From Thermodesulfobacteriota bacterium (lineage in GTDB: Bacteria > Desulfobacterota > Desulfobulbia > Desulfobulbales > SURF-16): a stretch of DNA of 64,000 nucleotides. The notes beneath the pieces are model-generated. The model had not been told where the DNA came from. It saw only the letters and a program-made list of their open reading frames with translations, and made no database searches. The stretch spans positions 63,476 through 127,475 of the forward strand of contig JBMONN010000037.1 of NCBI GenBank assembly GCA_049323935.1. Reading direction: 5' to 3'. The position numbers were made by a program, and so were the translations under genes. Positions 2,381-51,171 of the stretch are shown here, piece by piece. Positions within the stretch are counted from its first letter, which is position 1. Each line of letters opens with the position of its first letter.

Positions 2381-2386
2381 CCGCCT

Positions 2387-19080: not shown

Positions 19081-20334
19081 CTACCAGCCGTTGTCAAGAA
19101 AGTCAAGCCCCTGAAGAGAACGGCGCAAAAGATCGAGCCCGGTCATGGACGCCTTGGTCTGCACCATGGCGCGGTTGCCGGAAAAACGGTAGCTCAGGGA
19201 AACGGCGCCGTGCTGCTTGGCAATGGCGAAACAGACGGTGCCCACCGGCTTCTGCGGAGTGCCTCCGCCGGGCCCGGCGATGCCGGTAATGGCAAGGGCA
19301 ATGTCAGCGCTACAGATTTTCCTGACGCCGATCGCCATTTCCGTCGCCGTCTCGCGACTGACCGCCCCGCATCTGTTCAGGGTCGGCCGGCTGACACCGA
19401 GCACTGCCTCCTTCACCGCATTGGCATAGGCCACAACCCCGCCCCGAAAGTAGTCCGAGCTGCCGGCGATCTGGGTGATATGATGGGCCATCAGGCCACC
19501 GGAACACGACTCGGCCAGGGCCAGGGTCATCTTCCGCTCCCGCAGGAGCTGGCCGACGATGGCCTCCAGGGAACGATTGGCGTCGTCGTAGATGCAACAA
19601 CCCAAAATTGCGCGGATGGTGGCCTCGCCCCGGGAAAATCGTTCAGCGGTTTCCTCGGGCGTCATCCCCCGCACCGTCAGGCTGACATGCACCTCGGCCG
19701 CGTTTGGGTAATAGCCGATGCGCAGCTGCTGGTTGCTTTTCTCGAAAGCAGCCAGTTTTTCCTGCACCAGCGGTTCAGGCAGGCCGTAGACCTTGAAGAC
19801 CTTCTGTTTCACCAGGGAGCTGTTCGTCCCACCCCAGGCGGCTAGCCGTGGAATGACCCGGTCGAGCATCAATTCCCGCATCTGGTGGGGTACGCCGGGC
19901 AGGAAAAAAATCGGCTTGTCCTGGTAGATAAGCATATAGCCGGCAATTCGGTCGCCGGGTTTTAAAATCTCCGCACCGGATGGAAGCCAGGCCAGCTTTT
20001 CCAGAGAAGGCATCTCCTTGAACGATTCCGATTGTTTGATTTTATCGAAAATCTCCGGATAGAGGATGGTGGGTCGGTCCAGGGCCTCGGCCACCGCCTG
20101 GTTCGTCATGTCGTCATTGGTGGGACCGAGCCCGCCGGTGACCACGACAAAATCGGCCCGTTCGATGCTCTCCCGCAGAGCCTTGCCGATCATCCGCGGT
20201 TCATCGCCGATGGTGGCCATGGCGGTAATTTCATGGCCGGCGCCATAGAGATGGCTGGCCGCAAAATGGCTGGTCGAATTCAGGATCCGGCCGGAGGTCA
20301 GTTCATTGCCGATGGCGATAATCTCTCCAATCAT
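19081..20334 (-). CDS. cinA: CinA family competence/damage-inducible protein (MoCF-binding domain plus PncC-type NMN deamidase domain)
   Basis: 417 aa, [18 protein letters not shown]... and [15 protein letters not shown]. Classic position upstream of recA. Confidence 0.9.
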
Positions 20335-24071: not shown

Positions 24072-24117
24072 ACGGAAAGGGCCAGCAAGAAAAGAAGAAG
24101 AGACAACGAGAAAATTA

Positions 24118-24299
24118 AGAGCTTATCCACAAATAAGCTTTTCAGGGATCGCGCCGGATTTTGAGACGGATTTGACCGGGACGATTGAGCAAAACCGCAG
24201 GCGTAGCAGCGCTACGGCGAGGATTCTGCGATTGAGTAAAGGGCAAAGGTGGCCAAAAGCCGGATGCGAGCATCAAAGATTTATTTGTGAATAAGCTCT
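24118..24299. repeat. 182-bp element bounded by 19-bp near-perfect terminal inverted repeats (MITE-like element or structured RNA)
   Basis: AGAGCTTATCCACAAATAA (24118-24136) against the reverse complement of 24281-24299 (AGAGCTTATTCACAAATAA), with 1 mismatch. Imperfect complementarity extends about 30 nt further inward. If the ends are taken as GAGC.../...GCTC, TAA flanks both sides. There is an internal hairpin CGTAGC-agc-GCTACG and an internal direct repeat GATTGAG(c/t)AAA. Confidence 0.6.
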
Positions 24300-24553
24300 A
24301 AACTCAAGCCCGGGGCGACGGCAGTCATCCGCTCACAGGGAAAATGGACCACCCCGGCGACGAAAGGATCGCCATTTGCAAGACGACATTCCCATGCTGA
24401 TCACGACGAGCGGCCTGAAATCACTCTCGGTCCGGCAGGTTACCTTGGTGTACCGGTTTGCCGGATTGCTGGCCCGCTTTATCGGCTGGCGCCGTCGCCT
24501 CGGCACCGATCAGCACCGCCAGCTCCTCCGGGCTGACGCCCTCACCCGAGCGC

Positions 24554-25420
24554 TTACGGGGGGACCGACTGAGTCGCAATCGACGCATGCTGGACATGGT
24601 ACAGACCTGCCTTCCGGCCCGCCGTCGCCATCAGGGCCCCGGTCAGGACTGGTTGATTGCCGCTCATGGCCTCAAGAAAGCCGTTGTAGAGCAGGCGGTT
24701 GATCTCCCTGGGTATGCCGTTGCTGAGTCGATGGGCCTCAGTGTAGGCATCGCTGGTCAGGAGGGATGGAGAGGCGCCACATTTAAGGAGCCGAAACTTG
24801 ATGAACTGCTCTGTTTCCCGCTGCCGCAGGGGTTCAAGCTGCACGGCAAAGGTGATTCGGCTCCGCAGGGAGGCATAGGAGGGATGGGCCAGGCGCCGAC
24901 TCAGTCCTTTTTCGGCGATGAGCAGGACCGTGACAAGCTTTTCCTGTTCGGTTTCCAGGTTGGAGAGGGTGCGGAGGATATGGAGAGCATCGGCTTTCAG
25001 GAAATGGGCCTCGTCAATGACGATGACCAGACGCCTGCCGCTCTGGTAAAGAGCCAGGGCCGTTTCCTGCACCTGACGAAGAAGCTGATCGGCGTTTTTG
25101 GCCGCCTGCCGCCGCTCCGGGACGGCCTCGGCCAAGATGCGATCAAGAAGGGTTCCCTTGCCCATCTCCGGATAGACCGGCACAATCACTGTGGCGAAAC
25201 GCTCGCCCAGCTCACGCATCACCAGCTGGGAAAGCAGGGTTTTGCCGGTGCCGGAGACACCGCTGAGCAGGATAAGGGCGTGGCAGTCCTCGATGCCGAT
25301 GCGGAGCTTGACCAGGGCCTCTTCGTGCTGTCTGGTCCGGTAAAAAAGATCGGTGTTCAGGGTGTCCTTGAAGGGATTGCGGGAAAACCCGAATTTTTCT
25401 GCCCAGCCGGAAGAGCTCAT
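24554..25420 (-). CDS. ExeA/GspA/MshM-like AAA+ ATPase (AAA_22, COG3267-type)
   Basis: 288 aa with Walker A GVSGTGKTLL, Walker B LVIVIDEAH, and the family-typical N-terminus FGFSRNPFKDT. Confidence 0.8.
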   Translation of the reverse strand: MSSSGWAEKFGFSRNPFKDTLNTDLFYRTRQHEEALVKLRIGIEDCHALILLSGVSGTGKTLLSQLVMRELGERFATVIVPVYPEMGKGTLLDRILAEAVPERRQAAKNADQLLRQVQETALALYQSGRRLVIVIDEAHFLKADALHILRTLSNLETEQEKLVTVLLIAEKGLSRRLAHPSYASLRSRITFAVQLEPLRQRETEQFIKFRLLKCGASPSLLTSDAYTEAHRLSNGIPREINRLLYNGFLEAMSGNQPVLTGALMATAGRKAGLYHVQHASIATQSVPP

Positions 25421-26475
25421 GCGGTTTTCCTCTCCGGTGCCACGCTCCCGGGCCGAGCGGCGCGAATAAGATTGAGATAGCGCCCGAAGGAGGAGCTGCC
25501 GCGACCGCGGTCTGTCTCGCTGCGCAGGAGATTGCAGGCAATGGCCCGGGTGTTTTTGCTGACCCGGGACTCCGGTCGGTAGATCGCATGGGGGGTGCGC
25601 CGCGCCGACGCCAGCGACACGGTGGCATCCTTGAGGATATAGCCGCTGTTTATCACGGTACGATCGAGAAAATCCCGGGCGCAGGTGACAAAACGACGGG
25701 CCGCATCAGCCGCCTGTTTGAGAGTCGTAGCCATATTGACTACCAGATACAGGGGACGGCGAGGCATATTTTCCTGGTGCAACCCCTTCAGCAGGCCATA
25801 GGCATCGGTCAGCGAGGTGATGTCGGGCGTGATGACAAAGATGATTTCATCGGCGGCCATGAGAAAATCGCGCACGCCCCGCCCCATGCCCGCGCCGGTA
25901 TCGACGACGATGATGTCGGCCGCCTTTTCCAGCTCGACCAGCGCATCGATGACCCGCAACCGATCCTGTCGACTACTGTCGGCCAGAGAGAGCAGTCCAT
26001 TGCCGCCGGCAATGATGCCGATGCCTTCCGGTCCGGCTTCGATGATGTCCGCCAGTTCCGCCGTTCCCCGCATGAGATCGAGGAGGCAGTGGCGTGGGGT
26101 GATGCCGGCCAGCAGGTGGATGTTGGCGAGCCCCATGTCGCCATCGAGCACTACCGTCATTTTTCCCAGCCGCTGCCATTCCACCGCCAGGTTAAGGGCC
26201 AGGTTGGTTTTTCCCACCCCTCCCTTGCCGGAGGTAACAGCAATGACCCGGGCGCGGCAGGCGGCGACCGGCTGAGGCAAGGCGCCGGTATCGCTGCGGG
26301 CATGGATAGCGGCAAAGGCGGTAACGCTGGCCGGGGCAAAATAGAGTACCCCGCCCTGGAGAATCTTTTCGGGCAACGCGTCGCCGTATTCGGATTCGTA
26401 ATAGCGCAGCAGACTCTCCTCAAGCCCGGTGAGGCGGACCAGATCGTCTATGGTGAGCAGGCGGGAATCCATCAC
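25417..26475 (-). CDS. MinD/FlhG(FleN)-like P-loop ATPase with an N-terminal MerR-like HTH segment
   Basis: 352 aa. Deviant Walker A TSGKGGVGKTNLALNLA. The N-terminus LTIDDLVRLTGLEESLLRYYESEYG resembles a MerR-type HTH. ATGA overlaps on both sides. Confidence 0.75.
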   Translation of the reverse strand: MMDSRLLTIDDLVRLTGLEESLLRYYESEYGDALPEKILQGGVLYFAPASVTAFAAIHARSDTGALPQPVAACRARVIAVTSGKGGVGKTNLALNLAVEWQRLGKMTVVLDGDMGLANIHLLAGITPRHCLLDLMRGTAELADIIEAGPEGIGIIAGGNGLLSLADSSRQDRLRVIDALVELEKAADIIVVDTGAGMGRGVRDFLMAADEIIFVITPDITSLTDAYGLLKGLHQENMPRRPLYLVVNMATTLKQAADAARRFVTCARDFLDRTVINSGYILKDATVSLASARRTPHAIYRPESRVSKNTRAIACNLLRSETDRGRGSSSFGRYLNLIRAARPGSVAPERKTA

Positions 26476-29216
26476 GATGCCGCCGCCCGGCCTTCCCTGC
26501 CCTTGATGGCCCGGGCGATGGTGTCAAGCAACCGATCGAGGAGAAAGGGCTTTTTCAGGCAGGCAAAGGCCCCCTTGGCTGCAGTTTCCTGAATCTCGGC
26601 CATAGAGGCATGGCCGGTAATGATGATTACGGCGATGTTCGGATATTCCTGTTTGATGAATTTGAGCACCGCCAGCCCGTCCTTACGCGGCATGCGCAGA
26701 TCAAGCAGCACGACATCATATTTGTCCTGTCTCAGTTTTTCCAGGCCTTCCACTCCGTCATAAGCGCCGTCAACACTGTAGCCGGCGGCCCGCAAGGTTT
26801 CCTGTACCACGGAATTGAGCGATTCCTCGTCATCCACCACCAGAATCCGATGCCGTCCTTCGTCCGCCTTGGCCGCGTCCTCTTTTTTCCTGGTCTGGAG
26901 AATTTTTTTCATCTCCCGTAGGCGGTCGCTCTTATCCAGGGGCAAACGGACGATAAAAGTCGTGCCCTGGCCAGGCTCACTTTCCACCAGGAGGGAGCCT
27001 TTGTTGTGCTCCATGATAGTGTGAGAGACCGCCAGGCCGAGTCCGGATCCATCCCCTTCCATTCGGGTCGTGAAAAAGGGATCAAAGATCTTGGTCAGAT
27101 CCTGCGCGGCGATGCCATGGCCGCTGTCACGGACAAAAACATCGATATACTCGCTGACGGCAGGGGCGGAGATGGTCAGCCTGCCGCCCTCCGGCATGGC
27201 CTGGCAACTGTTGATGAACAGATTAAGAAAGACCTGCTCGATCTGCTGGGAATCAACCATGACCTGCGGTAGTTTGCCGGAGAGCTGGTTGTCCACCGTG
27301 ATGCTGGCCAGGGCGCCGCGGTTCTCCATCAGCCGCAACGCCTTTTTCACGACGTCCGCTACCGCGGTCGGGCCGAATTTCGGTTCGGTCGGCTTGGCAA
27401 AGGCCATCAGATTATTAACCACACTGGCGATCCGCTCTACCTGATCGGAGATTATTTCCAGCCTTTTGCCCGGTTCAAGGGTATCTGTCGGCAGCAGCCG
27501 CTTCAGCAGCTGGAGATTGAGGGAAACCACGGTCAGCGGGTTGTTGATCTCATGGGCCATGCCATAGGCAAGATGGCCGACCGTGGCCAGCCGGTGGGAA
27601 TGAAAGAGCTGTTGCTGTTGCTGTTCCATCCGCCGGGATGCCTCTGCCAGTTTTTTCGCCTGCACGGAAAGCGCCTGCTGGAGCAGCAGGCGATCAATGG
27701 CAGTGCCGGCGGCGGCGGCAAAGGCCTCAAAATTCTGGCGCAGACCGGTCATCCCGTTCCGGATGCAATCAGGACCGTCGCTGAAATCGATCAGCAGCTG
27801 CCCGAGCAGCGGCTCCTTGCGCCAGCGGGAATTCCGGTCCGCAACAAAAAAGGTGGCGAGAAATTTCGCCCCGGACAGCAGGCTGAACATGCGCGATTCG
27901 TCGATTCTGCCATGCACCAGATCGTGGGTAGCCTGCTCCAGCCGGTTTGCCGCCTCGATTTCGATGTCGCTGGTCGCATGGTTTTTGCGCCGGGCCATAT
28001 CGGCAAGAATGGAGGGTAGTTCGACCTGGTGAAAGACGTCCCGTTCAACAATGGCACCGATGAAACGGTGCGCTTTCGGATCACGGATCAGACAAAGCGC
28101 CCGCTCCACCTCAAAAGCCGCACACACCGAACGACAGACAATTTCCGCAGCCTCCCGCAGCGAGAGATCGGAATGGAGTTGCTCATGCATCTGACAGGTG
28201 GCGGAGAGGATGCGGTTGGTGGCGAAGAGATCCTGGTTGTTCTCTTCGAGCTGCAGGCTCATCCGGCCCAGGCTGACATTGGCCGTGCGCAGCAGCTGCC
28301 GGTATTCGTCTCTGTTCCAGAAACCGAGGATCTTGCAGACATCCTCCACCCTGGCATGGACACTCTCCATAATCTCCTGGAGATCAGGCCCGCTCAATCC
28401 ATGGAGACGGGCCAGATATTCGAGGGCGCGCCGAAAGGTGTCATGGCAGACCGGGCGCTCGGTGAGAAAGTAACTGGAGCCGACATTATGGGTGACGCAC
28501 AGGACATCGGCAAAACGGACAAGCTGAGGCAAATGGTCGGCATCCGGCGCGATCGGTTCGATGACCGGTTGGTGATGGAGCCACATGGAGCGGGTCAGGA
28601 TATCGGGGAATCCGTAGCGTTCACCAATCAGTTTGCCGACATCGATATGATCGAAACCGGCGATGAGCTGCTCGGTTTCCAAGGGGGTCAACACGCTGTC
28701 CGCAGCGCTGGTGGGCTGTTCGATCTCCTGGCAGATGCGGGAAAAGGTGTCGGGAAACTGCTGATAGCAGACGAGCTTGCCGAGATCATGAATCAGACCG
28801 CAGAGATAGGCCTCATCAGGGGAAGGGAAGTCGAGACGGCGGGCCAGGGCCTCGGCGGTGGCGGCGACGCCGATGGCATGCAGCCAGAAACGGACCAGTT
28901 TTTCCTCCTCCTGTTCAGTGGCGGCGGAAAAACTGTCAAAAATCGACACCGAGAGGATGATACTCCGCAAGGCATTGAAGCCGACCGCCGAGATGGCATG
29001 GGGAATGGTGGTGATTTCCCGTCTGGCGCCGACATGGACGGAATTGGCATAGCGGAGAATCTTGCCGGTAAGCACCTGATCGTTTTTCAGCAGCTCCGCC
29101 AGGGAATCAAAGGTGGAATTCTCGCCCTCCATGAGACGAATGGCCTCCATGGCCACCGAAGGCAGAGTGGGCAGGCTGTCGAGATTAAAGGAGCGGGTCA
29201 GAAAGTTTTCCGGCAT
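26472..29216 (-). CDS. Hybrid sensor histidine kinase: HDOD, GAF-like, HisKA, HATPase and REC domains
   Basis: 914 aa. HDOD N-terminus (LPTLPSVAMEAIRLM...LRYANS, LIHDLGKL), H-box GMAHEINNPL, G-boxes DSGHGI/GSGLGL, and a C-terminal receiver ILVVDDE...VLLDLRMPRKDG...KP. Confidence 0.85.
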   Translation of the reverse strand: MPENFLTRSFNLDSLPTLPSVAMEAIRLMEGENSTFDSLAELLKNDQVLTGKILRYANSVHVGARREITTIPHAISAVGFNALRSIILSVSIFDSFSAATEQEEEKLVRFWLHAIGVAATAEALARRLDFPSPDEAYLCGLIHDLGKLVCYQQFPDTFSRICQEIEQPTSAADSVLTPLETEQLIAGFDHIDVGKLIGERYGFPDILTRSMWLHHQPVIEPIAPDADHLPQLVRFADVLCVTHNVGSSYFLTERPVCHDTFRRALEYLARLHGLSGPDLQEIMESVHARVEDVCKILGFWNRDEYRQLLRTANVSLGRMSLQLEENNQDLFATNRILSATCQMHEQLHSDLSLREAAEIVCRSVCAAFEVERALCLIRDPKAHRFIGAIVERDVFHQVELPSILADMARRKNHATSDIEIEAANRLEQATHDLVHGRIDESRMFSLLSGAKFLATFFVADRNSRWRKEPLLGQLLIDFSDGPDCIRNGMTGLRQNFEAFAAAAGTAIDRLLLQQALSVQAKKLAEASRRMEQQQQQLFHSHRLATVGHLAYGMAHEINNPLTVVSLNLQLLKRLLPTDTLEPGKRLEIISDQVERIASVVNNLMAFAKPTEPKFGPTAVADVVKKALRLMENRGALASITVDNQLSGKLPQVMVDSQQIEQVFLNLFINSCQAMPEGGRLTISAPAVSEYIDVFVRDSGHGIAAQDLTKIFDPFFTTRMEGDGSGLGLAVSHTIMEHNKGSLLVESEPGQGTTFIVRLPLDKSDRLREMKKILQTRKKEDAAKADEGRHRILVVDDEESLNSVVQETLRAAGYSVDGAYDGVEGLEKLRQDKYDVVLLDLRMPRKDGLAVLKFIKQEYPNIAVIIITGHASMAEIQETAAKGAFACLKKPFLLDRLLDTIARAIKGREGRAAAS

Positions 29217-29402: not shown

Positions 29403-29732
29403 TCATCCGCTGGTGCAGGCCTGATCCTGCTTGCCGCCGGCAGCGCCGAGAATATACTGGCGCGCCACCTTGACCCGAACATTGTCGGCGACCTCCAGGG
29501 TGACCACTGTGTCGGTCAGACCGGTGATCTTACCGTGCAGCCCGCCACCGGTGATGACTTCATCGCCTTTTTTCAGATTGGCGAGAAATTCCTGCTGGGC
29601 CTTGGCCTTTTTCTGCTGGGGCCGGATGAGCAGAAAATAAAAGACGACAAAAATGAGGATCATGGGCAGAAAGCCGGCCAAGGGGCTGGCCGCGGGAGCC
29701 GCAGCATCGGCGGCGTGGGCAAGTGTGGTCAT
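29403..29732 (-). CDS. yajC: Preprotein translocase subunit YajC
   Basis: 109 aa, MILIFVVFYFLLIRPQQKK...GDEVITGGGLHGKI. Located directly downstream of tgt. Confidence 0.9.
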   Translation of the reverse strand: MTTLAHAADAAAPAASPLAGFLPMILIFVVFYFLLIRPQQKKAKAQQEFLANLKKGDEVITGGGLHGKITGLTDTVVTLEVADNVRVKVARQYILGAAGGKQDQACTSG

Positions 29733-31659: not shown

Positions 31660-31868
31660 GGTCTTTTCGTTGTTTTCACTGGTGCCGCCGGTCCGGGCAC
31701 AATTGTATTTTTCTGTTGTGATGAAGAATTAATCCTGCCTTCCTGGACCAGGACATCGATCCTGATTGCAGAAAACGACATTTATGATAGGGTAGGTCGA
31801 TGCGGCGAAAAGGCCACGCCCCTCCGTGGTCCGACCCGATTAACGTGTCACTTTACCCTAATTTTGCC

Positions 31869-34800
31869 ATGAATACGACGAAATCATCACCACACTGGAA
31901 AAGATTCGAGTTTGACGGTCACGCCATCTATGTTGCCCCCGACATTCCGGACTGGTTTGTCGCCGATGGCCAAACCGACTCCTTCCTCTCCAATCAGACC
32001 CGACCAGGGGAAATGGAGACACTGCACCTGGCCCGCCTCCGCGCCCTTACAGAAAGGGAGCCGCCCCCGCCATACGCCGGCCGCGGCCAGGTGCTCTCAC
32101 TCAGCCGCCTGAAAGAATGCTGGTTCCATCTTACCGACGCCTGCAATCTGGCCTGCCGCCACTGCCTGTTCAGCGCCTCTCCGGCCTCGCCGGCTGCCCT
32201 GCCCGAGGCCGATCTGCGCCGCGCCATGGCAGAGGCGCGGGAGCTGGGCTGCACCATCTTTTATTTTACCGGCGGTGAGCCCTTTATCTACCCGAACTTT
32301 TCCGATGTCCTCCGTGACCTGCTGGCTGCGGATCCGCACTGCCATACGGTGGTGCTGACCAATGGCCTGCTTCTGCGGGAGCAGGGGGCATTTTTTACCA
32401 GTGCCGACCGGGAGCGGCTTCATCTGCAGATCAGTCTCGACGGACTGGAAGACAACCACGAACGCCTGCGCGGCACCGGCACCTTTGCTAGACTGCTCGA
32501 CAACCTCGCCTTTCTCCGGGACCATCACATCCGCCCCACTCTATCGGTGGCGGTCAACCGGCACAACGTGGCGGCACTCTCCGCCATCGTTTCCCTTGCC
32601 GGAGACATGGAGGTCGGCAATCTCCACCTGCTCTGGCACTTTGTCCGGGGCAAGGGCAGCAGCAACCAGTTCGTGCCGCCGAGTGAAATCTGGACCCATC
32701 TGCGACCGGCCCTGGAACTCGCCGATCACCTGGGCATTATGATAGATAACGTCGAGGCACTGAAAAGCCAGGTATTCTCCTCCCCCGGCACCCGCTTTGA
32801 CCTCAGCAACAGCGGCTGGGACTCCCTGGCCATCGGTCCGGACGGGGCAATCTATCCTTCGCCGGCCTTAGTGGGGATTGCTGAGCTTCGTTGCGGTGTT
32901 CTCACCGAAGGACTCGAACGGGTGTGGCGCACGAGCCCGGTACTCGCAGACCTCCGCCAGACAACCCTTGTCGGTTCCGCCTACGAGGAAAATCCCCTGC
33001 GTTTTCTCATCGGCGGCGGCGATATCGACCACAGCTACTTACGCGGCGGCTCCTTCACCGGCCATGATCCCTATGTCGAGCTTTACAATCGCATGGCCCT
33101 CTGGCTTATTGCCCGCCAGGCCGGCCGCTATTCGGCCCAGACAGAGGGATCGATCCTGCTGCGCATGGGCGATGTCCGTCATGACTGCCCGGAGGGAGGC
33201 GCGGTAGCCCTGACCCACTGCAACTGCGTTATCTCCCTCGGTGACGACCGGGGCCATGCCACGGTACGGGAATTTTACGGACGGGCCGCCCAGGAGGCCA
33301 ATGCGGAAATCGTCAACCCCTTTGCCGACCGCCAGCAGGAGGCGGATTTCATTCCGGCGGTGTCCCGCCAGCGCTCATACGGCTGCGGCAGCCCGGTCCA
33401 GGACGCCTTCCTCTCCCAGGGTGAAACCCTGGTTGATCTTGGCAGCGGCAGCGGGGTCGAGTGCTTTCAGGGCGCGGCAATGGTGGGCTCCGCCGGCAGG
33501 GTCTACGGCATCGACATGACCGACGCCATGCTGACCCTGGCCCGCTCTTCCCAACGCGAAGTGGCACAACGTCTCGGCTTTGACAACGTCGAGTTTCGCA
33601 AGGGTTTTCTCGAAGAAATCCCCCTGGAGGACAGCATTGCCGATGCGGTGATCTCCAACTGCGTCATCAATCTGAGCCCGGACAAACGCCGCACCCTGCA
33701 CGAGGCCTTCCGTATCCTCCGCCCCGGCGGCAGGCTGGTGGTGGCTGACATCGTCACCGACGAGGCGGTGCCGGCCGCGATCAAAAACGACGAAAAGCTG
33801 CGGGGTGAGTGTCTGGGCGGCGCCATGCGACAGACGGAGCTGCTGGCCATGCTGCGCGCCACCGGCTTTGTTGCGGTGCGCTTGCTCAAACGTTTTCCCT
33901 ATCGCAGCATCGGGAACACCCGTTTTTATTCACTTACCTTCCTTGCCTGGAAGCCGGCCGCGCCCGAGACGGCGCAGGTCATCTACCGCGGCCCGTTTGC
34001 CGGCGTCTTCACGGAGAGCGGCAGACTGCTGCTCAAAGGGGAAAAAACCAAGATCGCAGCGGCTGATCTGGCCGGACTTGACGAATCGGTCTTTATACTG
34101 AACCAGGAGGGCGCGGTGATCAATATCGACCAGGGCGGGGGCTGCTGCGGTCTGCCGCCGGAGAGCAGCCCCGCCCTCTCCTGCTGTTCCTCGCCAGCGG
34201 CAAGCGATCGGCGCCAGCACAGCGACTGCATGGTCTGCGGCAGCGAGTTGCGCTACTTCACCCGGGACCGGGCCGAAACCTGCCATTATTGCGGAGAGGA
34301 GAAAGAGGCGAACGCCGTCTGCCTGCACGGCCATTTCGTCTGCGATAACTGTCACCAGGACAAGGGCCTGGCGGTTATCAAAAAGATCTGCACCGAATCA
34401 GCGGTGGAGGACATGATCATCCTGCTGAAGAAGATCAGATCGCAGTCCGCAATCTCCATGCATGGACCGGAGCACCATGCCATCATCCCCGGCGTCATCC
34501 TCTCCGCCTACCGGGCCCGGGGCGGCAAGGCCGGGAAAAAAGACATCCTGGCCGCCATCGAGCGCGGCAGTCGGGTGCCGGGCGGCGTCTGCGGTTTCTG
34601 GGGCGGTTGTGGCGCCGCCCTCGGTGTGGGGATCGCCTTTTCCGTTATTCTCGAGGCGACCCCGCTCACCCCGGGCAAACGGCAACAGGCCCAGCAGGCC
34701 ACGGCCCAGGTTTTGGCAAAAATGGCCGCAATCCGGGCCGGTCGCTGCTGCCAGCGGGAAAGCGTCATCGCCCTGCAGGAGGCTGCCAGCCTCTCCCCTG

Positions 34801-34949
34801 ACCTGTTGCCGGTGACACTGGTTGCCGCAGATACTCTTCACTGCAACCAGTACCCGCGCAATCGCGAGTGTATCCGCAAGGCCTGCCTGCTCTGGGACAG
34901 CCGTGATCGGGGCGCGGAGACAGGGCTGCCGGTCGCCCTGGTGATCTGA
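31869..34949 (+). CDS. Three-part fusion protein: radical-SAM domain, ArsM-like SAM-dependent (arsenite-type) methyltransferase domain and a Cys-rich C-terminal domain (DUF5714-like?)
   Basis: CNLACRHC at nt 32142-32165. MTase motif I VDLGSGSG (33432-33455), with cysteines in YGCG, SNCVINL and GECLGGA contexts. C-terminal CxxC...CxxC, GPEHH and CGFWGGCGAALG. Start set at MNTTKSS (ATG 31869); the track ORF begins at 31800. Confidence 0.8.
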   Translation: MNTTKSSPHWKRFEFDGHAIYVAPDIPDWFVADGQTDSFLSNQTRPGEMETLHLARLRALTEREPPPPYAGRGQVLSLSRLKECWFHLTDACNLACRHCLFSASPASPAALPEADLRRAMAEARELGCTIFYFTGGEPFIYPNFSDVLRDLLAADPHCHTVVLTNGLLLREQGAFFTSADRERLHLQISLDGLEDNHERLRGTGTFARLLDNLAFLRDHHIRPTLSVAVNRHNVAALSAIVSLAGDMEVGNLHLLWHFVRGKGSSNQFVPPSEIWTHLRPALELADHLGIMIDNVEALKSQVFSSPGTRFDLSNSGWDSLAIGPDGAIYPSPALVGIAELRCGVLTEGLERVWRTSPVLADLRQTTLVGSAYEENPLRFLIGGGDIDHSYLRGGSFTGHDPYVELYNRMALWLIARQAGRYSAQTEGSILLRMGDVRHDCPEGGAVALTHCNCVISLGDDRGHATVREFYGRAAQEANAEIVNPFADRQQEADFIPAVSRQRSYGCGSPVQDAFLSQGETLVDLGSGSGVECFQGAAMVGSAGRVYGIDMTDAMLTLARSSQREVAQRLGFDNVEFRKGFLEEIPLEDSIADAVISNCVINLSPDKRRTLHEAFRILRPGGRLVVADIVTDEAVPAAIKNDEKLRGECLGGAMRQTELLAMLRATGFVAVRLLKRFPYRSIGNTRFYSLTFLAWKPAAPETAQVIYRGPFAGVFTESGRLLLKGEKTKIAAADLAGLDESVFILNQEGAVINIDQGGGCCGLPPESSPALSCCSSPAASDRRQHSDCMVCGSELRYFTRDRAETCHYCGEEKEANAVCLHGHFVCDNCHQDKGLAVIKKICTESAVEDMIILLKKIRSQSAISMHGPEHHAIIPGVILSAYRARGGKAGKKDILAAIERGSRVPGGVCGFWGGCGAALGVGIAFSVILEATPLTPGKRQQAQQATAQVLAKMAAIRAGRCCQRESVIALQEAASLSPDLLPVTLVAADTLHCNQYPRNRECIRKACLLWDSRDRGAETGLPVALVI

Positions 34950-38928: not shown

Positions 38929-39849
38929 TCAGACCCAAAGACGGCGAACAGCGTCGATAAAGCGCCGGTCCTGCTCCGGACTGCGGCCGCGCTGGGTGAG
39001 ATAGCCGCCGATCATCATGCCGTCGGCGCCGGCCAGAAAGGCGAGGCCGAGAAAATCGCCCAGGGCCGATTCCCGACCCGCCGCCAGCCTGAGCGGGATA
39101 TCGGGCAGAATGAGACGGAAGAGGGAGATGGTCCGCAGAATGTCCTCCACCGCCAGCGGCGCCGTCTTTTCCAGGGGCGTACCGGGCAGAGGGATAAGGA
39201 TATTGAGCGGCACCGAATCAACCCCCAGTTCGGCCAGGGAAAGGGCCATGGAAACCCGGTCGTCTTCGCTCTCCCCGAGGCCGATGATCCCGCCGGCGCA
39301 GACCTCGAGCCCTGCCTGCTGGGCGGCGCGGATGGTGTTGATCCGGTCGCTGAAACTATGGGTGGTGACAATGTGAGGAAAAAAATCCCGCGATGTTTCC
39401 AGGTTATGGTGATAGCGGGACAGACCGGCCTCCTTCAATCGGCAAAAATCCTCCAGGGTAGCGAGGCCGAGGGAGGCGCAGACTGCGATGTCCACCTGGG
39501 CACGGATCGCGGCGATGATCGCACAGAGCCGCGGCAGCAGATCCGTGGTGACGCCCCGGCCGCTGGTGACGATGGAAAAATGGCTGGCGCCGTCTTCCCT
39601 GGCCTGGTGGGCCGCCGCGACGATTTCCGCCGTGTCTTTGAGGGGATAAACCGGGGTTGCGGTGGGATGACGGGCCGACTGGGTACAGAAGCGGCAGTCC
39701 TCGCTGCAGCGGCCCGATTTGGCATTGATGATGGAACAGAGCGAAACCCTTGTCCCCCGGCGGTCAAGTTTTGCAGCCAGGGCCCGCTCCATCAGCTCCC
39801 GGCAGGAAAGGGCGCGCAGTTCCGCTATGGCGGCTGGAGAAGAGGTCAT
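38929..39849 (-). CDS. bioB: Biotin synthase
   Basis: Radical-SAM motif CSEDCRFCTQS and conserved BioB blocks (YHHNLETS). Confidence 0.93.
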   Translation of the reverse strand: MTSSPAAIAELRALSCRELMERALAAKLDRRGTRVSLCSIINAKSGRCSEDCRFCTQSARHPTATPVYPLKDTAEIVAAAHQAREDGASHFSIVTSGRGVTTDLLPRLCAIIAAIRAQVDIAVCASLGLATLEDFCRLKEAGLSRYHHNLETSRDFFPHIVTTHSFSDRINTIRAAQQAGLEVCAGGIIGLGESEDDRVSMALSLAELGVDSVPLNILIPLPGTPLEKTAPLAVEDILRTISLFRLILPDIPLRLAAGRESALGDFLGLAFLAGADGMMIGGYLTQRGRSPEQDRRFIDAVRRLWV

Positions 39850-42260: not shown

Positions 42261-42430
42261 GAGTGTCGTTTATTATCGTCAAACCGGATAAAAAAAAAGC
42301 AGCCGATGGAAAACATATGCGACTATGCCCCTCTTGCCACCGTTTGTCAAGAAGAAGGGTTGTGAATGCTTGTCTAAAGTGGTATTTTGAAAATTTCTTG
42401 ATTCTCGTGCCATCATCGCGGGTCGACATA

Positions 42431-43009
42431 ATGACGCTTCCCCACACCATTCCTGCCCATGGGATCGGCTTTGATATTGACTGCGTCGTCGCCGATACCA
42501 TGGAGGCCTTTATCCGTCTTGCTGCGGAAGAGCATGAAATCTCCATTGCCCCAGAAGAAATCACTGCCTTCCAGGTGGAAGATTGTCTCGCTGTTGACAA
42601 GGCGATTATTGATACCATTTTTAACCGATTGCTGTGTGACCCCATCAGCTGCGGCTTAAAGCCCATGACCGGTGCAGTTGCTGTCCTCAGTTGGCTCGCC
42701 GCTCGCGCTCCCTTGAAATTTGTGACCGCCAGACCCACCGCCGAGCCCATTATCCGATGGCTTCAAACTGTTCTGCCCGCTGATGTCAGCGCCAGCATGC
42801 GCCTTGTCGCCATGGGTGACCACGATACCAAGGCAGATTACGTCAGAGCATTGGGTATCCAATATTTTGTCGACGACCGGGTTGAAACCTGCCTGCAGAT
42901 GGCCTGTTCCGGTCTCACCCCTGTTGTTTTTGACCAGCCATGGAATGTCGGCAGACACAATCTTGTCTCTGTGCATTGCTGGGATTCACTCGGCAAACTT
43001 CTTCGTTGA
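42431..43009 (+). CDS. HAD-superfamily hydrolase (5'-nucleotidase-like)
   Basis: Start at MTLPHT (ATG 42431). Motif [12 protein letters not shown] and a C-terminal FVDD motif. Confidence 0.55.
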
Positions 43010-43011
43010 GG

Positions 43012-43431
43012 ATGGCAATGGCTTCCCCATGTACAAACCAGCACCCACGAAACCCCTTGCCTACGGTGGATATTATAATTGAAATCGCCGGTGGCATTGT
43101 TCTCGTCAGACGAAAGAATCCCCCTCACGGCTGGGCCCTTCCCGGCGGTTTTGTTGATTACGGTGAGTCGCTGGAATCAGCGGCGAGGCGTGAGGCATTG
43201 GAAGAGACCGGTCTTACCGTTACCCTTGTCCGCCAGATGCACAGCTATTCTGCGCCGGGCCGTGATCCGCGCTTTCATACCATCAGCACGGTCTTTATCG
43301 CCCGGGCCGACGGATCTCCTTGTTCCGGGGATGATGCGGCCGAAGCACGAATCTTTTCCCTTGACAACCTTCCCCCTCTTGTCTTTGACCACCAGCTCAT
43401 CCTGCAAGACTTTATCAACAAAATTTACTGA
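43012..43431 (+). CDS. NUDIX hydrolase
   Basis: Nudix box [23 protein letters not shown]. Start ATG 43012 lies directly after the upstream stop. Confidence 0.85.
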
Positions 43432-43575
43432 CTCCACCGGTCACTTTTTTCCCCTTTCCCCCCTTTTCCATTCCCCGTCTAGCCGTACCGGATCATCATC
43501 GAATGCTGATTTTTTTTTGCTCTTTTATTTTGCCCGGCAAACCTCCATGTTTTTCGCAAATACTCATATTTACAG

Positions 43576-43604
43576 TTGTCATCACTCCCCCGGTTTGGTA
43601 TAAG
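43576..43604 (+). promoter_or_regulatory. Candidate sigma70 promoter for rpsA (TTGTCA-17nt-TATAAG)
   Basis: TTGTCA at 43576-43581 and TATAAG at 43599-43604. An AGGAGG RBS lies upstream of ATG 43641. Confidence 0.4.
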
Positions 43605-43640
43605 AATCTTTTCTAAATTGGCCAAGGAGGAAATAGGTTC

Positions 43641-45374
43641 ATGGGAAACAGCGCAACAGAAAACAAACAACAGGATGACTTTACGTCCATCCAGGAAGGG
43701 ATGAGCTTTGCAGAGCTCTTCAATGACGAACAGCTCAATGTCGCAAATGTCGGTGACGTTGTGCAGGGTACCATTATCGGACTGACCGACAACTTCGCGG
43801 TTATAGATATCGGCGACAAGTCCGAGAGTGAGATCCCCTTGAGTGAATTCCGCAGTGAAGGGGAAGAGATCGAAGTCAAAGTCGGCGATGTATTCGACGT
43901 TTTTGTCGAAAAACGCGAGGCTGAAGGTGGACTGCGCCTTTCCCGCGAGAAAGCGATCGGCATCAAAGTATGGGAGGATATTGCCAGTATCCAGGAGGCT
44001 GACGGTACCATCAGCGGCCGCATTGAGAGCCGGGTTAAGGGTGGTCTTTCGGTCGACATTGGTGTCCCGGCCTTTTTGCCCTATTCACAGATCGATCTTC
44101 GTCCTGTCAAAGATCTTGACAGCATGATTGGTCAGACATATGAGTTTAAAATCCTCAAGTTCAACCGCAAACGCAACAATGTTGTCATTTCACGCCGTGC
44201 CATCCTTGAGGCTGAGCGCCAGAAGCTGCGGGAGGCGATGCGAACTTCCCTTTCCGAAGGTTCCGTTGTAGTCGGCACCATCACCAATATCACTGACTAC
44301 GGCGTATTTATTGATCTGGGCGGTCTTGACGGACTCTGTCATATCACCGATCTGTCCTGGGGCCGGGTTTCTCATCCGTCCAAGCTGTTCAAGGTTGGAC
44401 AGGAGATTGAGGTCAAGGTCCTCAAGTATGACAAGGAAACCGATAAAGTTTCTCTCGGCGTCAAGCAGCTCAAGCCTGATCCCTGGTCAACTGTTGAACA
44501 GAAGTACCCGGTCGGCTCACGGGCGGTTGGCAGAGTGGTCAGCATTACCGATTATGGTGTTTTTGCCGAATTGGAAGAAGGCGTTGAAGGGCTTGTCCAT
44601 GTTTCAGAGATGTCCTGGTCCAAGAAGACCCGTCACCCGTCTAAAATCGTTTCAGTGGGCGACGCCATTGATGTCTCGATCCTCAATATCGATGTTGATG
44701 CCAAGCGCATTTCACTGGGCATGAAACAGTTGCAGCCCAACCCATGGGATCTGGTGACTGAAAATTATCCTGTCGGCTCTATTATTGAAGGAAAAATCAA
44801 AAACATCACTGATTTCGGCATCTTTATCGGCATTGAGGAGGGTATTGATGGACTGATACATGTTTCGGATCTCTCCTGGACGGAACGTATCAAGCATCCC
44901 TCTGAAAAATATTCCAAGGGGCAGACAATTCAGGCCGTGGTGCTGAAAATCGACCGGGAAAATGAGCGATTCTCTCTTGGCATCAAACAGTTGACACCTG
45001 ATCCCTGGCAACAGGCGATCGAAAAGTACCCGGTTGGCACCCAAGTTTCCGGTAAAATCACCAATGTCACTGATTTTGGGATATTCGTCGAGGTTGAGGA
45101 CGGGGTAGAAGGTCTAGTCCACGTCTCGGAGATCAGCAAGGACAAGATCAACACCCCTGTTGGCATGTACAATGTCGGTGATATGATCGAGACCAAGGTC
45201 ATTAGTGTTTCTGCCAAAGACCGTAAAATCGGACTTTCCGTTAAGGCAATGACGGATGACAGTGATGATATGAAACTCGAAGATTACAAAAAAATGCAGG
45301 CTCAATCCGGGCCGTCAACACTGGGCGATCTGCTCAAGGAAGAGCTGAACAATCAGGAACGTCGGGAAGAGTAA
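43641..45374 (+). CDS. rpsA: 30S ribosomal protein S1
   Basis: 577 aa made of six S1 (OB-fold) repeats, with recurrent G.V..I..FG.FV....EGL.H.SE pattern. Confidence 0.96.
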   Translation: MGNSATENKQQDDFTSIQEGMSFAELFNDEQLNVANVGDVVQGTIIGLTDNFAVIDIGDKSESEIPLSEFRSEGEEIEVKVGDVFDVFVEKREAEGGLRLSREKAIGIKVWEDIASIQEADGTISGRIESRVKGGLSVDIGVPAFLPYSQIDLRPVKDLDSMIGQTYEFKILKFNRKRNNVVISRRAILEAERQKLREAMRTSLSEGSVVVGTITNITDYGVFIDLGGLDGLCHITDLSWGRVSHPSKLFKVGQEIEVKVLKYDKETDKVSLGVKQLKPDPWSTVEQKYPVGSRAVGRVVSITDYGVFAELEEGVEGLVHVSEMSWSKKTRHPSKIVSVGDAIDVSILNIDVDAKRISLGMKQLQPNPWDLVTENYPVGSIIEGKIKNITDFGIFIGIEEGIDGLIHVSDLSWTERIKHPSEKYSKGQTIQAVVLKIDRENERFSLGIKQLTPDPWQQAIEKYPVGTQVSGKITNVTDFGIFVEVEDGVEGLVHVSEISKDKINTPVGMYNVGDMIETKVISVSAKDRKIGLSVKAMTDDSDDMKLEDYKKMQAQSGPSTLGDLLKEELNNQERREE

Positions 45375-45401
45375 GAATCCTGCAGACGTTTACTGAATGG
45401 T

Positions 45402-46325
45402 ATGACAGAAGAAAGGTTATTCCGCCGGAAACATCCATTGCTCACCGGATTTCTTATCCTGGGAGCTATCGGTTTTTTTTTCTGGGCCGGAATAACCTTT
45501 TTTGTTGCCAGCCTGTTCAGGCAGAGCAGTCCCGATTTTTTCCATACCGATGCGGTAACCATTGCGATTGTCCCCCTCAAAGGCGTGCTCACCGATGCTG
45601 AAGAAGTTTTAGCCCAGCTCGATCGTTTCAGTCGAAATGACGCAGTCAAGGCCCTTGTCGTTCGCATTGACAGCCCCGGCGGCGCGGTGGGTGCGGCGCA
45701 GGAAATCTATCGTGAGATCGCTCGGGTAAACAAGGTCAAGCCCGTTGTTGCGTCAATGGGTTCAGTTGCAGCCTCTGGTGGATACTATGCAGCCATTGGC
45801 GCTGGGAAAATTCTTGCCAGTCCGGGCACCCTGACTGGCAGCATGGGGGTCATTCTCAAGTTTCCCAACCTTGAAGAGATCTTTCAGAAAATCGGATATA
45901 AAGATGAAGTGGTCAAAAGCGGCCCGATGAAAGACATCGGTTCGCCGAGCAGGCCTTTGTCTTCGAATGAGCGTCGTCTCCTGCAAAACCTGATCGATGA
46001 GGTGCATAAACAGTTTGTTGCGGATATAGCAGCCAGCAGAAAACTTCTCCCTGAAAGGGTGCGCGAATTTGCTGACGGTCGGATTTTTTCCGGAGAAACC
46101 GCAAAGCAGCTGGGATTCATCGATGATTATGGCAATTTCAATGATGCGGTCAGACTGGCGGCAGAACTTGCTGGTCATCCCGGAAAAAACACAACCCTCC
46201 TTTACCCGGAAAATGATCGCCTCTCTTTTTTCAAGCTTTTTGCCGTAAACGGCCTCTCCGACCTGCTGCGACGTACGGGTATGGAACATCCGCGCCTTTC
46301 CTATGAGTGGACCCATTTACCGTGA
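45402..46325 (+). CDS. sppA: Signal peptide peptidase SppA (36K type)
   Basis: 307 aa with an N-terminal TM, IDSPGGAVGAAQEIY and the catalytic-Ser context ASMGSVAASGGYY. Confidence 0.88.
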   Translation: MTEERLFRRKHPLLTGFLILGAIGFFFWAGITFFVASLFRQSSPDFFHTDAVTIAIVPLKGVLTDAEEVLAQLDRFSRNDAVKALVVRIDSPGGAVGAAQEIYREIARVNKVKPVVASMGSVAASGGYYAAIGAGKILASPGTLTGSMGVILKFPNLEEIFQKIGYKDEVVKSGPMKDIGSPSRPLSSNERRLLQNLIDEVHKQFVADIAASRKLLPERVREFADGRIFSGETAKQLGFIDDYGNFNDAVRLAAELAGHPGKNTTLLYPENDRLSFFKLFAVNGLSDLLRRTGMEHPRLSYEWTHLP

Positions 46326-46521
46326 TGCGAAATAGCATTCATAGCCACCTACTGCTCTGAAGCCTTGCAGCTTGACTCCGCGATGTCTCAATGAAGAAGG
46401 TCTGGTGGCGACAGTCCAAACGACAGTTCACATTTTTTTACCGTGCCCGAAAAGGTTAGCCGCCAAAGCCGGACGGACAAAGCCCGATTTATCAAGCCAT
46501 TTTTGGGCCAGGAATGTTTAT

Positions 46522-46839
46522 ATGTTAAAACGTGATCTTATCAATTCTGTAGCTGAACAGACCCCAGGGCATCTGAAAAAAGATGTCACCCATGTGATCG
46601 ATATCATTCTCGATGCCATAACTGAGGCCCTGCAAGAGGGAAGAAGGGTAGAAATTCGAGGCTTCGGCAGCTTGTGCACCCGGGAGCGGAAATCACGGAT
46701 CACAAAAAATCCGCGGACCGCCCAGGTCATGCACATTTCGACCCGGAAAACCGTTCACTTCACAATGAGTAAATCCATCAAGGATCCGCTGGCCAGTGTA
46801 AACCCCAACGATGTCCAACCTGGCACTAGCAAAGGTTAA
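46522..46839 (+). CDS. ihfB: Integration host factor beta subunit-like (HU/IHF family)
   Basis: Start at MLKRDLINSV (ATG 46522). The VEIRGFGSL motif is typical of IHF-beta, and synteny after rpsA agrees. Confidence 0.8.
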   Translation: MLKRDLINSVAEQTPGHLKKDVTHVIDIILDAITEALQEGRRVEIRGFGSLCTRERKSRITKNPRTAQVMHISTRKTVHFTMSKSIKDPLASVNPNDVQPGTSKG

Positions 46840-46845
46840 AAAATA

Positions 46846-47460
46846 CTATCTCAGAAATTCTCCCGTATCGCCTTTGCCGAACCGCAGGATCTCAGGGATA
46901 TCGCTGATAAGCGAAATGACACTGGAAGGCTCCGGTGGGGAACAGGGGCTGTCAATGATGACGTCGATCACGTTGCCGAGATTGTTGGCAACATCATAGG
47001 CATCCCGGGGAATGGAGAGATCATCGCGACTTGCAGTGGTCGTCAGTAAGGGGTTACCCAAGGTGTTGACCAAATACTGACAGATCGTATTGTCCGGAAC
47101 CCGAATTCCGACGGTTTTTTGTTTTGTCATCATGATTTTCGGTACGATTTTCATGGCCGGCAAGACAAAGGTATAAGGTCCTGGCAACGATTTTTTCATC
47201 AGCTTGTAGGCGGTATTCGACAGGTAACAGTAGAGACTGACATCTTTCAGATCAGCGCAGATGAAGCTAAACGGTTTTTCTTTGTCCCGCTTTTTAATCT
47301 GATAGATTCGCTTAACAGCCTTCTGATTGAAGATATCGCAGCCGATTCCGTAAACTGTGTCCGTAGGATACGCTACTACCCCTCCCTGGCGGAGCACCTC
47401 AACGGCCTGTTCAATAAGTCGCTGTTGCGGGTTGTCCTTGTTGATCTGCAAAATATGCAT
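46846..47460 (-). CDS. tsaC: L-threonylcarbamoyladenylate synthase (TsaC/YrdC/Sua5 family)
   Basis: GGVVAYPTDTVYGIGCD and the KKRDKEKPFSF motif. Start set at MHILQI (ATG 47460). Confidence 0.85.
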   Translation of the reverse strand: MHILQINKDNPQQRLIEQAVEVLRQGGVVAYPTDTVYGIGCDIFNQKAVKRIYQIKKRDKEKPFSFICADLKDVSLYCYLSNTAYKLMKKSLPGPYTFVLPAMKIVPKIMMTKQKTVGIRVPDNTICQYLVNTLGNPLLTTTASRDDLSIPRDAYDVANNLGNVIDVIIDSPCSPPEPSSVISLISDIPEILRFGKGDTGEFLR

Positions 47461-47705
47461 ATAATTCCTTCTGACAGGGTGATAATCCGGGCAGTCGATG
47501 CCCATCATTTATGGTTGCGACAAAAAATGATGATATCGTAAAAAGCTTTTTTACCACAGAACACAGAGACAACTAATCGTAATGAAAGATGTTTTCTCTC
47601 TGTCCTCAGTGCGCTCTGTGGTGAAAAAAGACTTGTTACGGGTTTTTCAAACATGGTTCGTCGGAATCGTGGTTTATTATGATTTCGACAATAATAGTTG
47701 AAATT

Positions 47706-51167: not shown

Positions 51168-51171
51168 AAAA

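Follow-up and report, generated by a model that had tools for sequence, protein, structure and literature searches.

In a 64,000-nucleotide stretch of contig JBMONN010000037.1 from a Thermodesulfobacteriota bacterium (assembly GCA_049323935.1; positions 63,476 to 127,475, hereafter the window), three consecutive minus-strand genes encode a cytoplasmic hybrid histidine kinase, an FlhG/FleN-clade MinD-type ATPase with an N-terminal winged helix-turn-helix (wHTH)-fold domain, and a soluble ExeA-clade AAA+ ATPase (Table 1). The trio is a conserved, autonomous module present in dozens of sulfate-reducer-type genomes and combines a two-component system with two ATPases, one MinD/ParA-type and one AAA+; its conservation is solid, and for its function and mechanism we offer hypotheses. 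Our preferred reading, to which we assign a probability of roughly 0.4, is by analogy: a stand-alone cytoplasmic operon whose kinase would gate a two-ATPase switch in the fashion of FleN with FleQ or Soj with DnaA. Each of the three proteins comes from a known superfamily, and the combination is undescribed as far as the searchable literature shows. Our literature search found no description of a kinase/FlhG-like/AAA+ combination, a 2025 review of FlhF and FlhG makes no mention of an HTH-bearing or HDOD-linked FlhG, and the initial annotation of this DNA, made from the sequence alone, had likewise not recognized the trio as a described system.

The case for a functional unit is made by comparison between genomes. 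Thirty-nine loci were compiled, 33 of them by scanning metagenomes for the N-domain motif of the ATPase and the others from contig look-ups, and 32 of the 39 have all three genes in the order kinase, ATPase, AAA+. Three of the other seven are cut by contig ends, one is on a frameshift-ridden contig, and one has its kinase split into two high-scoring segment pairs, which leaves two real exceptions, one without a kinase upstream (L113) and one without the AAA+ gene (L115). The first three ATPase homologue contexts all read kinase-ATPase-AAA+, one of them syntenic with the window, where tgt, rph, a U32 peptidase gene, mnmA, cinA, and recA are kept at 68% protein identity, and two with unrelated flanks. 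Flanking genes are lineage-specific (tgt/yajC and a U32 peptidase gene; thiL and uvrB; an MCP gene; a PIN gene; rpmE and dnaE), and clustering of the flanking open reading frames (ORFs) gave no fourth conserved gene, only lineage-specific housekeeping genes (thiL, uvrB, tgt, and rph). The full trio extends to divergent lineages (L122, L125, and L126) at 35–52% identity, the first of these being 35/39/44% identical to the window proteins. Common domain families, each able to function alone, in a window where start/stop overlaps are common, might be adjacent by chance and work independently; we consider this the least credible of the explanations weighed here, given an order kept down to 35–44% identity amid unrelated flanks in 32 of 39 loci and in L126. 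The same comparison upholds the earlier suggestion that the genes form a stand-alone unit, and they are not the distal end of a pilus, flagellar, or extracellular polysaccharide (EPS) cluster.

Elsewhere the kinase is absent and only the ATPase and AAA+ genes stand together. Such pairs were found in two Hydrogenedentota loci beside rplM-rpsI, in L124, in a Chthoniobacterales metagenome-assembled genome (MAG) of the Verrucomicrobiota (L045), where beta-helix proteins flank the pair, and in L123, where a separate HTH_17 gene stands ahead of the pair and glycosyltransferase genes follow it. The wHTH N-domain is recognizable by Pfam MerR_1 or by alignment in every paired ATPase but that of L045, which gives a partial motif match, and the presence of the appended domain follows that of the AAA+ partner. 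Of the two arrangements, the pair is the older and the more widespread.

All three minus-strand ORFs of the initial annotation exist in the ORF list. It had further described ATGA overlaps at both gene junctions and, from these, fixed stoichiometry by translational coupling. The overlap between the ATPase and AAA+ genes is indeed ATGA; the kinase/ATPase junction instead reads ATCGTGATGG, with the kinase TGA at 26474–26472, and the ATPase may start either at GTG 26475, which makes a GTGA overlap, or at an in-frame ATG at 26472–26470 that shares one base with the TGA (TGATG). Overlaps of 4 nt and 1 nt are ordinary in the window, in which other same-strand neighbors overlap at 20331–20334, 39846–39849, and 19081. 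The claim of fixed stoichiometry did not survive comparison, as overlaps are present in one third to half of orthologous loci (kinase to ATPase in 12 of 36; ATPase to AAA+ in 17 of 34), the remaining junctions having gaps of 2–254 nt or inserted toxin-antitoxin genes. Because overlaps are not universal among related loci, some of which carry inserts, we consider co-transcription of the trio likely and translational coupling not obligatory.

Three loci have toxin-antitoxin-type inserts precisely at the ATPase/AAA+ junction: a HigB/RelE-like insert in L096 (11215–11819), an AbrB/MazE-like gene with a PIN gene in L104 (1739–2379), and an antitoxin gene with a gene for an 803-aa TPR protein in L106 (11158–14493). 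They suggest that this intergenic spot tolerates insertion.

The sequence of the ATPase places it in the FlhG/FleN clade. Its best matches in the PDB are FleN (5j1j; 147 bits, E = 6e-42) and FlhG (4rz2; 130 bits), compared with at most 83 bits for MinD and about 26 bits for Soj. A residue-by-residue alignment sets its deviant Walker A (GKGGVGKT, 82–89), switch I (DGDMGLAN, 110–117), and switch II (DTGAG, 191–195) on the FleN and FlhG equivalents. Scores fall under the NCBIfam cut-offs for MinD (TIGR01968, 85.7 vs 212.9 bits; minD_arch, 119.9 vs 201.75), the NCBIfam CpaE-type similarity is weak (37 bits), and neither minC nor minE is present near the trio in the window flanks. Nor is the protein the chromosomal ParA, because a canonical parA-parB pair is present at 50298–52092. 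More than 120 full-length homologues have 54–94% identity, those with names belonging to Desulfurivibrio, Desulfobulbaceae, Desulfobacterales, and Thermodesulfobacteriota MAGs. A contig scan with the full-length ATPase alignment was dominated by the P-loop and gave only generic FlhG/MinD loci, which served as a control set: flhA, flhF, or fliA adjoin 74 of 80 generic FlhG relatives (31–44% identity) vs none of the 39 trio loci. The nearest non-orthologous genomic relatives of the ATPase are genuine flagellar FlhG genes.

HDOD signaling is tied to FlhG-type ATPases elsewhere too, as judged from two contexts that provide a hint on ancestry. In a KSB1 bacterium (MZGM01000022.1; L056, 1–9765) the flagellar cluster flhB-flhA-flhF-flhG-fliA leads directly into a 108-aa ORF, after which come genes for a 313-aa stand-alone HDOD protein, a 412-aa HisKA/HATPase kinase, and a TPR/DUF6115 protein. 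In a Gammaproteobacteria MAG (JAADHQ010000125.1; L030, 3469–8722) a 664-aa protein has an FlhG-like ATPase at its N-terminus, and its long C-terminal region resembles Hpt only weakly (20 bits, below cut-off); stand-alone HDOD proteins are encoded on both sides of it and a GAF-GGDEF protein adjoins.

What sets the trio ATPase apart from FlhG is its N-terminus. Pfam assigns residues 8–58 to MerR_1 (PF13411; 24.3 bits, cut-off 21.6) and the sequence after them to MinD/ParA-type domains, and PF13411 is precomputed for many of the ATPase homologues as well; with the PDB matches, this bears out the description of the protein as a MinD/FlhG-type ATPase with a MerR-type HTH. Invariant residues in the domain are T15, G16, L17, E18, E19, R23, Y25, E26, S27, and E28. 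There is neither a MerR-type dimerization coiled coil nor a C-terminal effector region in the alignment, where a short variable linker leads into the ATPase domain. The FlhF-activating N-terminal peptide of FlhG, which we take to be a DQAxxLR-type motif, is not seen in the ATPase alignment (A1), and the wHTH-fold domain of 55–60 residues stands in its place. A protein search with a 60-residue N-domain profile recovered six fragments only. The domain is acidic in 18 of 18 family members (net charge −2 to −7, pI 4.6–5.8); for comparison, the pI is 10.1 in a free HTH_17 protein and 9.5 in the basic AAA+ partner. Because the domain is consistently acidic and the AAA+ partner basic, we favor a role as adaptor over classical DNA binding.

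Were the HTH truly DNA-binding, the ATPase would be a ParA-like, DNA-bound ATP-dimer serving as transcription factor or nucleoid-anchored positioner, with the AAA+ protein as cargo or adaptor. MerR_1 does score above its cut-off, the LRYYE-type helix is conserved, and a visual comparison aligns the domain well with the excisionase-type HTH_17 protein from an Armatimonadota locus (L119); the AAA+ protein is basic, its modeled fold resembles the DNA-loading ORC/Cdc6 and TnsC, and one AAA+ relative is flanked by HTH_17 and ParB-like genes. This interpretation is nonetheless unlikely in view of an acidity unusual for a DNA-binding wHTH, the missing MerR coiled coil, the want of any palindrome or k-mer conserved upstream of the operon across lineages, and a chromosome that carries its own canonical parA-parB.

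The ATPase has a conserved C-terminal motif, SS(S/A)FxRY(L/M)NLI, with three invariant residues (S327, F329, and R331) and a nearly invariant Y332 (alignment A1). With a hydrophobic moment of 0.5–0.7 it is moderately amphipathic, and it sits where FlhG and MinD carry their membrane-targeting helix; it is possibly an amphipathic helix that binds a membrane or a partner.

The third protein is assigned by its motifs and domain matches to the ExeA/GspA/MshM/PEP-CTERM-ATPase superfamily. It matches AAA_22 in Pfam at 73.4 bits and TIGR03015 at 135.1 bits, below the cut-off of 324.5 for the latter, and contains an N-terminal FG(F/L)xxNPF motif, Walker A (GVSGTGKT, 54–61), and Walker B (VIVIDE, 132–137). 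P16, F17, G54, G57, G59, K60, D136, and E137 are invariant in the AAA+ alignment (A6), and arginines are conserved too. The protein ends with the AAA+ lid and has no C-terminal extension, transmembrane (TM) segment, peptidoglycan-binding domain, or SH3-like domain, in agreement with its first description as an ExeA-like AAA+ ATPase without the peptidoglycan-binding tail. In a neighbor-joining tree the AAA+ proteins of all trios and pairs form one tail-less clade; proteins that have a hydrophobic tail (MshM-like), an SH3-like tail, or a PG_binding_1 (PF01471) tail (GspA-like) fall into other clades. A search of 1.84 billion representatives returned 21,604 relatives, 116 of them below 1e-30; about 25 near clusters at 34–58% identity are followed by a mass of 500–700-aa GspA/ExeA proteins at ~32–35%. 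A more distant homologue from Thermosulfurimonas marina (P0150) is encoded inside an MshE-T2SSF-AAA_22-secretin-TPR locus, between T2SSF and secretin.

We found no solved structure matching the AAA+ protein by sequence. Its AlphaFold2 (AF2) model is confident, with a predicted local distance difference test (pLDDT) score of 93.9, and superposes best on ORC2/Cdc6 and TnsC (TM-score 0.66–0.73, 13–19% identity), a likeness at the level of fold only. ORC/Cdc6 and TnsC are initiator-clade AAA+ proteins that oligomerize on DNA. Compared with Soj-DnaA and ORC/Cdc6, and for all its likeness to ORC2/Cdc6 and TnsC/TniB, the trio protein lacks a winged-helix DNA-binding domain after the AAA+ module.

Other architectures were encountered among AAA_22 homologues. 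Four (P0133, P0151, P0154, and P0314) carry a tandem duplicate of the AAA_22 module within 600–670 aa, and three (P0138, P0139, and P0141) have N-terminal extensions of 170–280 residues without a Pfam match. In the Armatimonadota locus (MAG JACIXP010000001.1; L119, 7747–9853) an 85-aa HTH_17 protein, a 277-aa tail-less ExeA-clade AAA_22 protein whose gene has a 4-nt overlap, and a 339-aa ParB_N/HTH_ParB protein are encoded as one cassette. The surrounding island contains GmrSD-, Eco57I-, and UvrD-type genes, and the cassette may be a distinct deployment of this AAA+ clade, tied to defense or mobile elements.

Such a context, the toxin-antitoxin inserts of L096, L104, and L106, and the variation of flanks between lineages are what could be said for the trio itself being a mobile element, a plasmid-type partition cassette, or an anti-phage defense system. 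We regard this as very improbable. The GC content at third codon positions (GC3) of the trio, 0.71–0.73, equals that of its neighbors, the genes are held in synteny with tgt, rph, the U32 peptidase gene, mnmA, cinA, and recA in the related locus described above, and no integrase, transposase, or repeats bound them; PADLOC gave no significant match, only weak receiver-domain and P-loop matches of at most 31 bits.

The kinase carries a full-length HDOD match, and its HisKA (PF00512; 548–610, 51.7 bits), HATPase_c (PF02518; 655–761, 81.4 bits), and C-terminal receiver domains were assigned by Pfam as the initial annotation had proposed. It has the H-box, the three ATP-binding boxes (N, G1, and G2), and the receiver aspartate expected of a hybrid two-component histidine kinase. 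The predicted phospho-acceptor is His555, within HEINNP; the ATP-binding boxes are intact (N-box, 665; G1 DSGHG, 697; G2 GDGSGL, 721), and the receiver has its acidic residues at DD 795–796 and Asp839, within DLRMP. The GAF-like domain of the same proposal found no confirmation: for residues 225–545, Pfam on 19 orthologues gave no common family at E ≤ 1 and no GAF match, a PDB profile search gave noise only (the PtsP GAF domain at E = 0.55), and the AF2 model, made from a single sequence, has a pLDDT of 43. A sequence scan found no TM segment in any of the three trio proteins, as had been said of the 914-aa sensor, and the module is cytoplasmic as well as conserved. In 36 loci a kinase orthologue (35–78% identity) precedes the ATPase pair. 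Some HDOD proteins, SadB for example, serve as adaptors in the control of motility and biofilms (PMC12075610, PMC6543031).

In the switch that we propose, the core would be an ancient pair of nucleotide switches. One would be an FlhG/FleN-clade ATPase that lost its flagellar context and gained a wHTH-fold domain, and the other a small soluble AAA+ protein from the tail-less sister clade of ExeA/GspA/MshM; the HDOD hybrid kinase would have been added upstream as sensory input in Desulfobulbales-type and some other lineages. The kinase would sense an intracellular cue through its HDOD domain and region 225–545, autophosphorylate at His555, and then phosphorylate its own receiver at Asp839. The state of the receiver would modulate the ATP-dependent dimerization cycle of the FlhG-like ATPase, which would engage the basic AAA+ partner through the acidic wHTH-fold domain and/or the conserved C-terminal motif and would gate AAA+ oligomerization or ATPase activity, as FleN does with FleQ and Soj with DnaA. 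The output may concern gene expression or some assembly step anchored to DNA or membrane; a cytoplasmic or DNA-level output is more likely than periplasmic secretin assembly.

Precedents exist for the individual steps. Soj, a ParA/MinD-class ATPase, controls the oligomerization of DnaA, an initiator-clade AAA+ protein. TadZ/CpaE proteins, in which a receiver-like domain is fused to a MinD/ParA-type ATPase, act in pilus localization; as in the trio, a MinD-class ATPase is joined functionally to two-component-type domains, whereas the trio receiver is on a separate hybrid kinase and no tad/cpa genes are nearby. FlhG of the FlhF-FlhG system is of the same clade as the trio ATPase, with the deviant Walker A and the DxDxGxxN and DTxAG switches in common; the trio ATPase has its short conserved C-terminal motif where FlhG carries the membrane-targeting helix, and FlhG differs in its FlhF-activating peptide and flagellar neighborhood. 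In Pseudomonas FleN-FleQ, and in FlhG-FlrA, a MinD-type ATPase similar to that of the trio acts on an AAA+ ATPase as an antiactivator. For FleN, both binding and remodeling of the FleQ AAA+ domain have been described (PMC8528422, PMC10723142). Compared with that system, the trio partner is an AAA_22 ExeA-clade protein whereas FleQ is a sigma54 enhancer-binding protein, the trio has no flagellar neighbors, its ATPase has the added wHTH-fold domain, and its ATPase-AAA+ partnership is a predicted one.

Several points weigh against our proposal. We infer the FlhG-like ATPase to be an ATP-dependent dimer switch gating the AAA+ partner by analogy only. No ATPase-AAA+ gene fusion was found among the long AAA_22 homologues, and the trio operon encodes neither an Hpt protein nor a separate response regulator. 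Kinase control is a lineage-specific add-on, because several phyla have the pair with no kinase beside it. In 21 non-redundant loci, the DNA ahead of the operon shares no palindrome, k-mer, or motif that could serve as an operator. The AAA+ family tree is a midpoint-rooted neighbor-joining tree without support values or bootstraps. Finally, a cluster resembling those of the type II secretion system (T2SS) and type IV pili (T4P) is present in the window ~18 kb from the trio, with ATP synthase and other core genes between.

That cluster is one reason to ask whether the pair positions, counts, or assists the assembly of an envelope machine encoded elsewhere (T2SS, T4P, flagellum, or EPS) under control of the kinase. 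Members of the FlhG/FleN clade count and place flagella, the conserved, moderately amphipathic C-terminal motif is a candidate membrane-targeting helix, and the AAA+ protein is homologous to ExeA/GspA/MshM and the PEP-CTERM ATPase; glycosyltransferases follow L123, beta-helix proteins flank L045, and the KSB1 flagellar cluster has an HDOD protein and a kinase after flhG-fliA. On the opposite side, the trio or pair never adjoins secretin, pilus, or flagellar genes in the 39 trio loci and 7 further trio/pair loci, and the FlhF-activating N-terminus of FlhG has been replaced by the wHTH-fold domain. The AAA+ protein shares the AAA_22 domain and FGLxxxPF with ExeA/GspA of the T2SS, MshM of the MSHA pilus, and the XrtA/PEP-CTERM ATPase (TIGR03015) at 30–37% identity, yet lacks the TM segment and peptidoglycan-binding domain by which ExeA acts on secretins, as well as any SH3-like tail; it belongs to a clade different from that of the homologue inside the MshE-T2SSF-secretin locus (P0150), and unlike that homologue it is never found in a T2SS, MSHA, or PEP-CTERM locus. 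We therefore think an envelope-machine target rather doubtful, the evidence found here giving it no positive support from gene context. The reasoning from ExeA to secretin or pilus assembly in the initial annotation loses its footing with a tail-less cytoplasmic clade, the lack of such neighbors, and an initiator-like model; its statement that the locus has no flagellar, pilus, or secretin genes is correct for about 10 kb to either side and has to be qualified by the T2SS/T4P-like cluster farther away.

Returning to the kinase-gated switch, we can extend it beyond the trio with some hesitation. The wHTH-FlhG-like ATPase and the tail-less AAA+ protein might constitute a hitherto unrecognized, multi-phylum class of two-ATPase switch, with members in Thermodesulfobacteriota, Hydrogenedentota, Verrucomicrobiota, and further metagenome lineages. 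In this class a MinD/ParA-type dimer would directly gate an initiator-like AAA+ oligomer via a repurposed acidic HTH-fold adaptor, wired to an HDOD hybrid kinase in some lineages, in a process neither flagellar nor secretin-related.

FlhG/FleN, MinD, and ParA ATPases are models for the placing and counting of large bacterial structures, and ExeA-type AAA+ proteins are poorly understood. If our reading is true, the gating of an AAA+ oligomer by a MinD/ParA ATPase, the principle of FleN-FleQ and Soj-DnaA, extends to a new protein pair. The trio would provide a handle on the biochemical role of the HDOD domain and of the ExeA-type ATPase core, and a testable regulatory module in sulfur-cycling Desulfobulbales-type bacteria; even with a T2SS or pilus as its target, it would add a new trans-acting layer of control to such machines.

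Table 1. Coordinates of the trio genes, their domains and junctions, and of the T2SS/T4P-like cluster in the window (residue numbers refer to the encoded protein)
Feature	Coordinates	Strand	Extent or reading	Basis or context
Cytoplasmic hybrid histidine kinase gene	26472..29216	minus	914 aa	ORF list, Pfam, motifs
HDOD domain of kinase	28566..29174	minus	residues 15-217	Pfam PF08668, 168.8 bits, full-length match 1-196/196
Sensor/linker region of kinase (~300 aa), no family assigned	27582..28544	minus	residues 225-545	conserved in 19 orthologues
HisKA + HATPase_c catalytic core of kinase	26934..27575	minus	residues 548-761	Pfam
C-terminal receiver (REC) of kinase	26517..26846	minus	residues 791-900	Pfam PF00072, 96.5 bits
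Kinase stop/ATPase start junction	26472..26475	minus	GTGA	sequence read
FlhG/FleN-clade MinD-type ATPase gene with N-terminal MerR/excisionase-type wHTH-fold domain	25417..26475	minus	351-352 aa (352 from GTG)	Pfam, NCBIfam
N-terminal wHTH-fold domain of ATPase	26302..26454	minus	residues ~7-57 from ATG	Pfam MerR_1
ATPase domain	25525..26253	minus	residues ~74-316	motif scan, alignment to FleN and FlhG
C-terminal motif of ATPase, SS(S/A)FxRY(L/M)NLI	25456..25497	minus	residues ~326-339	alignment A1
ATPase stop/AAA+ start overlap	25417..25420	minus	ATGA	sequence read
Soluble ExeA-clade AAA+ ATPase gene (AAA_22)	24554..25420	minus	288 aa	Pfam
T2SS/T4P-like cluster	243-6652	minus		GspE, GspF, three pseudopilin-like ORFs, GspK, PilN-like
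GspE-type ATPase	4979-6652	minus		T2SS/T4P-like cluster
GspF	3769-4998	minus		T2SS/T4P-like cluster
Three ORFs with prepilin-type N-termini	3323-3934, 2724-3326, 2387-2803	minus		T2SS/T4P-like cluster
GspK-like gene	1382-2380	minus		T2SS/T4P-like cluster
PilN-like protein	243-1391	minus		T2SS/T4P-like cluster, reaching the left edge of the window

The flanks within about 10 kb of the trio are housekeeping genes, with no pilus or secretin genes within about ±10 kb. One flank has alaS, recA, cinA, a MiaB-like radical SAM gene, mnmA, and a convergent U32 peptidase gene; the other has yajC (29403–29732), tgt, rph, a radical-SAM/methyltransferase/DUF5714 fusion gene, fpg, and a kefB-like gene. No secretin gene was identified for the T2SS/T4P-like cluster in the annotated parts of the window, and a plus-strand 335-aa ORF at 2649–3656 is probably a spurious antisense ORF. 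Promoter and terminator scans of the window were unremarkable, and Rfam and tRNA scans gave no matches.

The convergent intergenic region between the U32 peptidase and AAA+ genes contains a 22-nt inverted repeat (24115–24302) that is 91% complementary, with arms 144 nt apart, the arms holding the window's only perfect DnaA box in 64 kb (TTATCCACA) and a one-mismatch partner. It was rejected as a part of the module, being kept downstream of the AAA+ gene in no related locus.

Two further observations concern other parts of the window. GC3 falls to 0.51–0.58, compared with about 0.7 elsewhere, in a region (42263–47508) with genes for an NT5C-like nucleotidase, rpsA with six S1 domains, and an S49 peptidase. 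The fusion gene beyond rph (31800–34949, plus strand) encodes a 1049-aa protein combining radical SAM, class I SAM methyltransferase, and DUF5714 domains, the counterpart of which in the syntenic locus (L081) has 1038 aa.

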